A stretch of 64,000 bases of DNA from Escherichia coli (GTDB lineage: Bacteria > Pseudomonadota > Gammaproteobacteria > Enterobacterales > Enterobacteriaceae). The stretch lies in the NCBI RefSeq assembly GCF_041886205.1, contig NZ_CP169029.1. The stretch is one strand, 5' to 3'. How positions within the stretch are numbered: the first letter of the stretch is position 1; every line of letters starts with the position of its first letter. The notes beneath the pieces were generated by a model. That model was not told the origin of the DNA and ran no database searches. It was given only the letters and a program-made list of their open reading frames with translations. The translations under genes and the position numbers were made by a program. This document shows, in pieces, positions 2,056 to 2,460 of this stretch.

Positions 2056-2460
2056 GCCCTTTAATTTGGAAATAAAACTTTAATCACCAATATTGAAAAT
2101 GTCACACGCAGATAAATCCAACTTTCAATATTGTTAAGTTCCTCACCAATATTGAAAACATGGCGTAGAAAAAAGAAATTTTCAATATTGCTTTATGGAT
2201 CACCAATATTGAAAGTCAGATGCTATTTTTTTACTCACAACATAACAAACTGATTAATAATCAAAATTAACGAGAAAAGCGCCCTCTATTCACCCGAAAC
2301 AAAAATGTGATAACAATCACAGAATGCAGCTTATTGAATACCCATTATGAGTTAGCCATTAACGCGTCCACGAGGTTAATAATAATTATATTAAATGTTA
2401 ACAAAAATAAAACAAACGGGAACGCAAAATAAATATTCGTTTTCACAGTGGAATTAACTC
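2056..2460. promoter_or_regulatory. Divergent cai/fix control region with repeated CACCAATATTGAAA / TTCAATATTG motifs (candidate CaiF/CRP/FNR binding sites)
   Basis: AT-rich 405-bp intergenic between divergent fixA and caiT; three copies of TCACCAATATTGAAA (about 2083-2099, 2142-2158, 2199-2214) and two of TTCAATATTG (2124-2133, 2181-2190) seen directly. Confidence 0.6.

Follow-up and report, generated by a model that had tools for sequence, protein, structure and literature searches.

Repeats in the cai-fix control region of Escherichia coli correspond to the CaiF operators and include a conserved fifth copy in the predicted fix core promoter

The repeated motif in the fixA-caiT intergenic region of this E. 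coli genome can with high confidence be explained as the recognition sequence of the activator CaiF, laid out as two paired operators and one additional, unpaired copy (A1) that would act as an extra contact point. The four paired copies are the CaiF half-sites of the operators F1 and F2 and are as such already known. What is new may be limited to the deep conservation of A1 and to its position in the predicted fix core promoter.

Layout of the repeats

Within the window, by which we mean the whole 64 kb stretch of DNA that was analysed, the 11-mer CAATATTGAAA occurs in five exact copies that all lie within 2088-2214, and no exact copy was found anywhere else in it (Table 1). The three plus-strand copies share four additional bases, giving TCACCAATATTGAAA at 2084-2098, 2143-2157 and 2200-2214, with steps of 59 and 57 bp from start to start. 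The two remaining copies read TTTCAATATTG (2123-2133 and 2180-2190, 57 bp between them). Direct and inverted copies had been described accurately in the first-pass annotation, but the latter are not "partially inverted", as it put it: TTTCAATATTG is the exact 11-nt reverse complement of CAATATTGAAA. The interval that it gave, 2056-2460, locates the motifs correctly but is wider than the cluster itself, which occupies 2084-2214. The core of the 11-mer, CAATATTG, is an 8-bp palindrome.

If one mismatch is allowed, the window contains 10 matches to the 11-mer, compared with 2.38 ± 1.52 expected; none of 100 shuffled sequences reached this number. The paired pattern TTTCAATATTG-N13-CAATATTGAAA occurs twice without any mismatch (0.00 expected), and the count stays at two when up to 3 mismatches are tolerated, with a chance expectation of none even then. 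The two 35-bp units are 57 bp apart and sit inside a 51-nt direct repeat with 75% identity, which suggests that the paired operators are the product of a tandem duplication.

Table 1. Features of the cai-fix locus in the window
Feature	Position	Strand	Details
fixA coding sequence	1222..1992	-	protein 100% identical to K-12 FixA
predicted fix core promoter	2077..2105	-	-35 GTGACA (2105..2100), 17-bp spacer, -10 TAAAGT (2082..2077); consensus scan
A1, unpaired TCACCAATATTGAAA	2084..2098	+	11-mer core 2088-2098; 14-mer TCACCAATATTGAA at 2084-2097
exact CAATATTGAAA, starts	2088, 2147, 2204	+	
exact CAATATTGAAA, starts	2123, 2180	-	
fix-proximal CaiF operator TTTCAATATTG-N13-CAATATTGAAA	2123..2157		centre 2140 (~-70 of fix, ~-215 of cai); 0 mismatches; same in K-12
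CRP-like TGTTAAGTTCCTCACC in first operator's spacer	2132..2147		centre 2139.5; 2 mismatches to TGTGA-N6-TCACA
fix-distal CaiF operator TTTCAATATTG-N13-CAATATTGAAA	2180..2214		centre 2197 (~-127 of fix, ~-158 of cai); 0 mismatches
weak CRP-like TGCTTTATGGATCACC in second operator's spacer	2189..2204		centre 2196.5; 4 mismatches (3 in K-12)
perfect CRP consensus TGTGATAACAATCACA	2306..2321		0 mismatches; cai class II site (-41.5)
probable cai -10 CATTAT	2343..2348	+	inferred from CRP at -41.5; start ~2355
caiT coding sequence	2461..3975	+	
caiF regulator gene	9697..10092	-	131 aa; ~7 kb from operators

The paired copies are the published CaiF operators

CaiF is described as binding two sites, F1 and F2, of the form 5'-TTTCAATATTG-N13-CAATATTGAAA-3' (Buchet 1999, cited in PMC12083890 and PMC3680233). 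According to these two papers, protection of F1 and F2 by purified CaiF in footprinting or interference assays has been published for the identical K-12 sequence. The F1 and F2 sites of K-12 (Buchet et al. 1999, Mol Microbiol 34:562) represent the same locus and the same sequence: both operators are matched letter for letter, and the four paired copies in the window do not show a single difference. The context is also that of F1 and F2, with a divergent fixA-caiT region and a caiF gene in the same genome.

Since the paired copies match F1 and F2 exactly, the regulator can be assigned for these four copies, contrary to the earlier statement that the assignment of motif copies to regulators is undecidable. 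The idea of multiple activator half-sites in the divergent control region is upheld by the identity with F1 and F2, but the N13 pairing of four of the copies had been overlooked. A comparison with the published footprints had been recommended, in which sites elsewhere in the region, with the repeats unprotected, would have spoken against the idea. The later papers quote the opposite: the published sites are the repeats.

fixA and caiT are divergently oriented, as had been proposed, and are separated by 468 bp with a G+C content of 32%. The product of caiF belongs to Pfam family PF07180 (CaiF_GrlA; 28.5 bits, cut-off 25) and aligns through residues 4-62 with the GrlA structure in PDB entry 4kt5_C (E = 0.001). 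The intergenic region is 98% identical to positions 41932-42402 of E. coli K-12 MG1655, with the five copies unchanged, and was found in 5,379 of 5,426 complete E. coli genomes. Among eight Escherichia sequences, the five copies are invariant and the intervening sequence varies; the differences from K-12 all fall outside the half-sites. Position 2191, the first spacer base of the second operator, is a C in the window and a T in K-12 and seven other Escherichia sequences, and the C adds one mismatch to the nested CRP-like site.

The most variable part of the region is 2230-2300, between the second operator and the cai CRP site. Its length differs from strain to strain in Escherichia owing to CACAA/CATAA-like repeats: compared with the window, the stretch is 3 bp longer in K-12, 4 bp longer in S88 and WW2 and 10 bp longer in O157. 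The net 3-bp difference from K-12 can be placed between 2230 and 2290. In this variable stretch, 5 bp that other E. coli possess are missing from the window, and the best match to 2200-2330 among complete genomes reaches 96.3%. Depending on the E. coli strain, the gap between the operators and the cai promoter thus varies by 0 to +10 bp, and strict helical phasing towards cai is therefore not conserved. A perfect 13-bp palindrome, TGATTAATAATCA (2251-2263; TGATTATTAATCA in K-12), is also located between the operators and the cai promoter, near the EcoCyc-derived placement of an FNR or ArcA site at -90 to -100 of cai.

CRP, FNR and the two promoters

Each operator carries a CRP-like site nested in its N13 spacer, and this is why TCAC precedes the direct copies: in the paired copies, the TCAC of TCACCAATATTGAAA is the right half of the spacer CRP-like site, which has one base in common with the CaiF half-site. 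TG..A and TCAC are preserved across genera, and the central 6 bp are variable, as expected of CRP sites. The perfect CRP site at 2306-2321 is FNR-like as well (GTGATAACAATCAC, 2307-2320, 2 mismatches to FNR). The scan for CRP and FNR motifs that had been proposed, carried out here with consensus sequences, thus located CRP sites in the spacers and at 2306-2321, but the 11-mer itself matches neither the CRP (TGTGA/TCACA) nor the FNR (TTGAT/ATCAA) consensus. A search for TTGAT-N4-ATCAA with up to 2 mismatches did not yield any FNR-like site over the repeats, the only intergenic match being the one at 2307-2320.

These results agree with the literature and with the earlier view that CaiF and CRP act in the cai-fix control region. 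A CRP site at -41.5 of the cai promoter has been described (PMC3680233), and the divergent cai and fix promoters use different CRP molecules (PMC3105977). Our literature search on the promoters fixAp and caiTp found only a remark in RegulonDB v8 (PMC3531196), in which fixAp has a pair of CRP sites like that of acsP2, the proximal one at about -69.5. FNR had been named as a third regulator acting here. An FNR ChIP-seq study reports FNR at the caiF promoter, does not list caiT or fixA, and treats the CaiF targets as an indirect regulon (PMC3688515). FNR thus acts on cai-fix mainly indirectly, via caiF.

The fix start inferred near 2070 follows from a promoter consensus scan that agrees with a CRP centre at 2139.5 lying at -69.5. 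On the other side, CCCATTATGAG at the probable cai -10 is invariant in Escherichia, and in distant genera the equivalent site is likewise followed by CATTAT. Buchet 1998 reportedly placed CRP site 1 at -41.5 of cai and sites 2 and 3 at -69.5 and -126.5 of fix, with a distance of 289 bp between the cai and fix start points. The weak site at 2189-2204 would then be site 3 at -126.5 of fix. With the CRP centres at 2139.5, 2196.5 and 2313.5 and these positions, the distance between the inferred fix and cai starts comes to 285 bp in the window and 288 bp in K-12.

TAAAGT aligns to a poor hexamer in distant genera, where a better -10-like TwTTAT is found 5 bp further downstream; the offset of A1 from the -35/-10 elements may accordingly shift by about 5 bp. 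In these genera, TTTGATTAAGATCAC(G/A) stands at the place of the cai CRP site, about 135-150 bp on the caiT side of the A1-type site. Its agreement with the FNR consensus (TTGAT-N4-ATCAc) equals or exceeds that with the CRP consensus, so direct anaerobic control of cai may differ between genera. The order also shares a conserved block at 2033-2056, in what is presumed to be the fix 5' leader. It reads GGTGGTGTTAATTACAGATATCAC in E. coli and GCAATAGAAATACCATGATTCA in Hafnia, Edwardsiella, Serratia and Leminorella and lies about 30-55 nt on the fixA side of the A1-type site.

The unpaired copy A1 and its conservation

Relative to the inferred fix start, A1 extends over about -14 to -28, within the predicted 17-bp promoter spacer. 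It does not have a partner half-site at the N13 distance with 3 mismatches or fewer, and the degenerate partner that one might seek 13 bp to its left was discarded, as 2064-2074 matches by eye in 4 of 11 positions in E. coli. A1 is an orphan in nearly all genera. Proteus and Providencia offer pairs with 4 mismatches, but upon inspection these fall on the A-rich -10-like block and were rejected. We likewise rejected a CRP site that uses the TCAC of A1, since its left half would be TAAAA or TAATA, with both G's absent.

For a wider comparison we used 80 CaiT loci, one genome per species; 55 of these are enterobacterial and have fixA in divergent orientation. An intact copy of the 14-mer TCACCAATATTGAA near fix is present in 46 of the 55, and a copy with 1-2 mismatches in 7 more. 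These loci represent about 20 genera, among them Proteus, Providencia, Hafnia, Edwardsiella, Serratia, Budvicia, Leminorella and Limnobaculum. A1 ranges over the Enterobacteriaceae, Morganellaceae, Hafniaceae, Budviciaceae and a Serratia, and is kept in every genus examined except Entomohabitans. With one sequence from each of 19 genera, the majority fraction is 0.99 in the 14-mer, compared with 0.54-0.65 in its flanks; a conserved AAATAAwAC block is found 5-6 bases to the left. In 10 of 14 genera, A1 and the first operator are 36 bp apart. No other element of the intergenic region is as well conserved as A1, and for this reason it is very probably functional. A coding cause of its conservation was dismissed because ORFs of at least 20 aa do not span A1, and an RNA cause because the sole Rfam match scored 15 bits against a threshold of 75, which is noise.

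The number of paired operators varies between genera. Three are present in Proteus, two in Escherichia, Salmonella, Citrobacter, Phytobacter, Pseudocitrobacter and Intestinirhabdus, and one in Pluralibacter, Yokenella, Trabulsiella, Atlantibacter, Entomohabitans and two other Enterobacteriaceae. None was found in Hafnia, Edwardsiella, Serratia, Limnobaculum, Budvicia and Leminorella, apart from one weak match in Leminorella (4 mismatches) adjoining fixA. Providencia, with one or two degenerate pairs, falls outside this grouping. Wherever pairs exist, the centre-to-centre spacing of 24 bp within them is invariant. Budvicia has two direct copies 27 bp apart that do not form an inverted pair.

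Hafnia, Edwardsiella and Serratia have A1 as their sole copy of the motif; a second one is present near fixA in Limnobaculum and Leminorella. In the latter two (loci L043 and L022, respectively), the extra copy is a perfect TTTCAATATTG located 25-35 nt before the fixA ATG; a CRP-like TGTGAA-N-TCCCA comes after it, beside the fixA ribosome-binding region. Two of the A1-only genera, Hafnia and Edwardsiella, were checked for the regulator, and both encode a CaiF_GrlA protein in the cluster. Their caiF homologue is located on the fix side, past fixX, an MFS transporter and a hydrolase (loci L082 and L083), while caiF of E. coli lies downstream of caiE. In Hafnia and Edwardsiella, the roughly 21 kb around the cluster contain no other exact copy of the motif, and one match with 1 mismatch in each. 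The CaiF-type one-mismatch sequence TATCAATATTG of Edwardsiella (L083, 3124-3134), about 68 bp upstream of the CaiF_GrlA gene, may be a hint that this gene is autoregulated. A CaiF-type copy upstream of caiF was not found in the window.

A plausible role for A1, judging from its position and conservation, would be that of an added, possibly ancestral, CaiF contact at the fix core promoter. According to Buchet 1998, a 50-bp region overlapping the fix start is reportedly needed for cai induction, and A1 might account for it. Our literature search for genome-wide CaiF binding data (ChIP-exo, DAP-seq, SELEX) did not return any, and Kugler 2021 does not mention CaiF.

Proposed mechanism and alternative explanations

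CaiF responds to a carnitine-derived CoA ester. Bound at both operators, it co-activates the divergent operons together with cAMP-CRP at the nested and the perfect cai sites (PMC12083890, PMC3680233, PMC3105977). In the arrangement that we propose, each pair of CaiF half-sites would bracket a CRP dimer on a shared dyad, with the half-site centres 12 bp to either side. With its carnitine-derived effector, CaiF at the two operators switches fix and cai on together with CRP at the nested sites and at 2306-2321, which is published biology; A1 would provide a further CaiF contact point at the fix core promoter. One could go further and regard A1 as a working, ancestral CaiF operator in the -35/-10 spacer, similar to that of GrlA, to which upstream pairs and nested CRP sites were added later in variable copy number. 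We consider this possible, but would put it forward only tentatively.

It is conceivable that every 11-mer is by itself a complete CaiF dimer site, in which case there would be five sites and the N13 pairs would be neighbours bracketing CRP. The palindromic core would fit such a reading, as would the genera with a single copy, since Hafnia and Edwardsiella still encode a CaiF homologue, and the two direct copies of Budvicia. However, the conservation is asymmetric, with GAA at one end and TCA(C) at the opposite one, where a symmetric dimer site predicts otherwise. The constant 24-bp spacing within pairs also speaks for a two-part site, and the published interpretation is that of two half-sites per operator (PMC12083890, PMC3680233). 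We find the complete-site arrangement doubtful, although it deserves some weight. That the motif is instead an array of CRP or FNR half-sites is an idea in which we place almost no trust. CRP does act here and TCAC precedes each direct copy, but CAATATTGAAA resembles neither TGTGA/TCACA nor TTGAT/ATCAA, the sole FNR-like match of the intergenic region is away from the repeats at 2307-2320, and the ChIP-seq data list caiF, not caiT or fixA (PMC3688515).

Two further alternatives concern A1 alone. Its conservation could be independent of CaiF and reflect a core-promoter sequence or the site of another factor. A1 abuts the conserved -10-like AAATAAwAC inside the predicted promoter, and F1 and F2 are the only CaiF sites named in PMC12083890 and PMC3680233. 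Promoter spacers, however, are normally not conserved in sequence, and the 14 invariant bases are those of the right half and inner flank of the proven CaiF operators. The motif is, moreover, exact nowhere else in the 64 kb, nor within the roughly 21 kb around the Hafnia and Edwardsiella clusters, and we judge a CaiF-independent origin of the conservation to be unlikely. It seems very unlikely that A1 has no function and was left over from the tandem duplication by which the paired operators arose. The 57-59 bp periodicity, the 75% identity of the units and their variable number between genera do indicate duplication, but A1 is better conserved than any paired copy and is present without paired operators, at a fixed distance from the -10-like block, across several families. 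The reading of A1 as an additional CaiF contact point is the one that we prefer.

Significance

The finding of the paired motifs is a rediscovery of the regulation of the carnitine operons published in 1998-1999; it is ordinary and does not change anything. A1 is of modest value as a candidate cis-element in the fix promoter, which is now used with CaiF for carnitine biosensors. The members of the CaiF/GrlA family may share a mode of action from the promoter spacer. Finally, the enterobacteria offer a natural series of 0-3 upstream operators combined with one constant core site, in which the growth of a site array by tandem duplication can be followed.

Comparison with known systems

The description of F1 and F2 given in the two later papers does not include the fifth copy A1. 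Upstream of fix, the two CRP-like 16-mers, which are 57 bp apart, resemble the acsP2-type tandem arrangement of CRP sites (about -69.5 and -122.5 to -126.5), an arrangement that RegulonDB gives for fixAp as well. Unlike in the acsP2 type, both 16-mers lie between CaiF half-sites and share a dyad with them, and the distal one is a weak site (4 mismatches in the window).

GrlA is the second named member of the PF07180 family besides CaiF, and the alignment of the two covers the N-terminal DNA-binding region. GrlA is reported to activate the LEE1 P1 promoter from its 18-bp -35/-10 spacer in a MerR-like manner (Islam et al. 2011). The GrlA target at LEE1 P1 is thus the promoter spacer, and A1 likewise lies in the (predicted) fix spacer. 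The published CaiF sites, in contrast, are far upstream at -70 and -127. Moreover, the suboptimal LEE1 spacer measures 18 bp and lacks dyad symmetry; for fix, the predicted spacer has 17 bp, and the A1 core is palindromic. A1 was therefore rejected as a spacer operator of the MerR/GrlA kind, for which a suboptimal spacer of 18-20 bp, offset by the activator, is characteristic. Given the optimal length of the predicted fix spacer and the alternative -10 in distant genera, the relation of A1 to the GrlA operator is recorded here only as a probable resemblance and not as membership of the same class.
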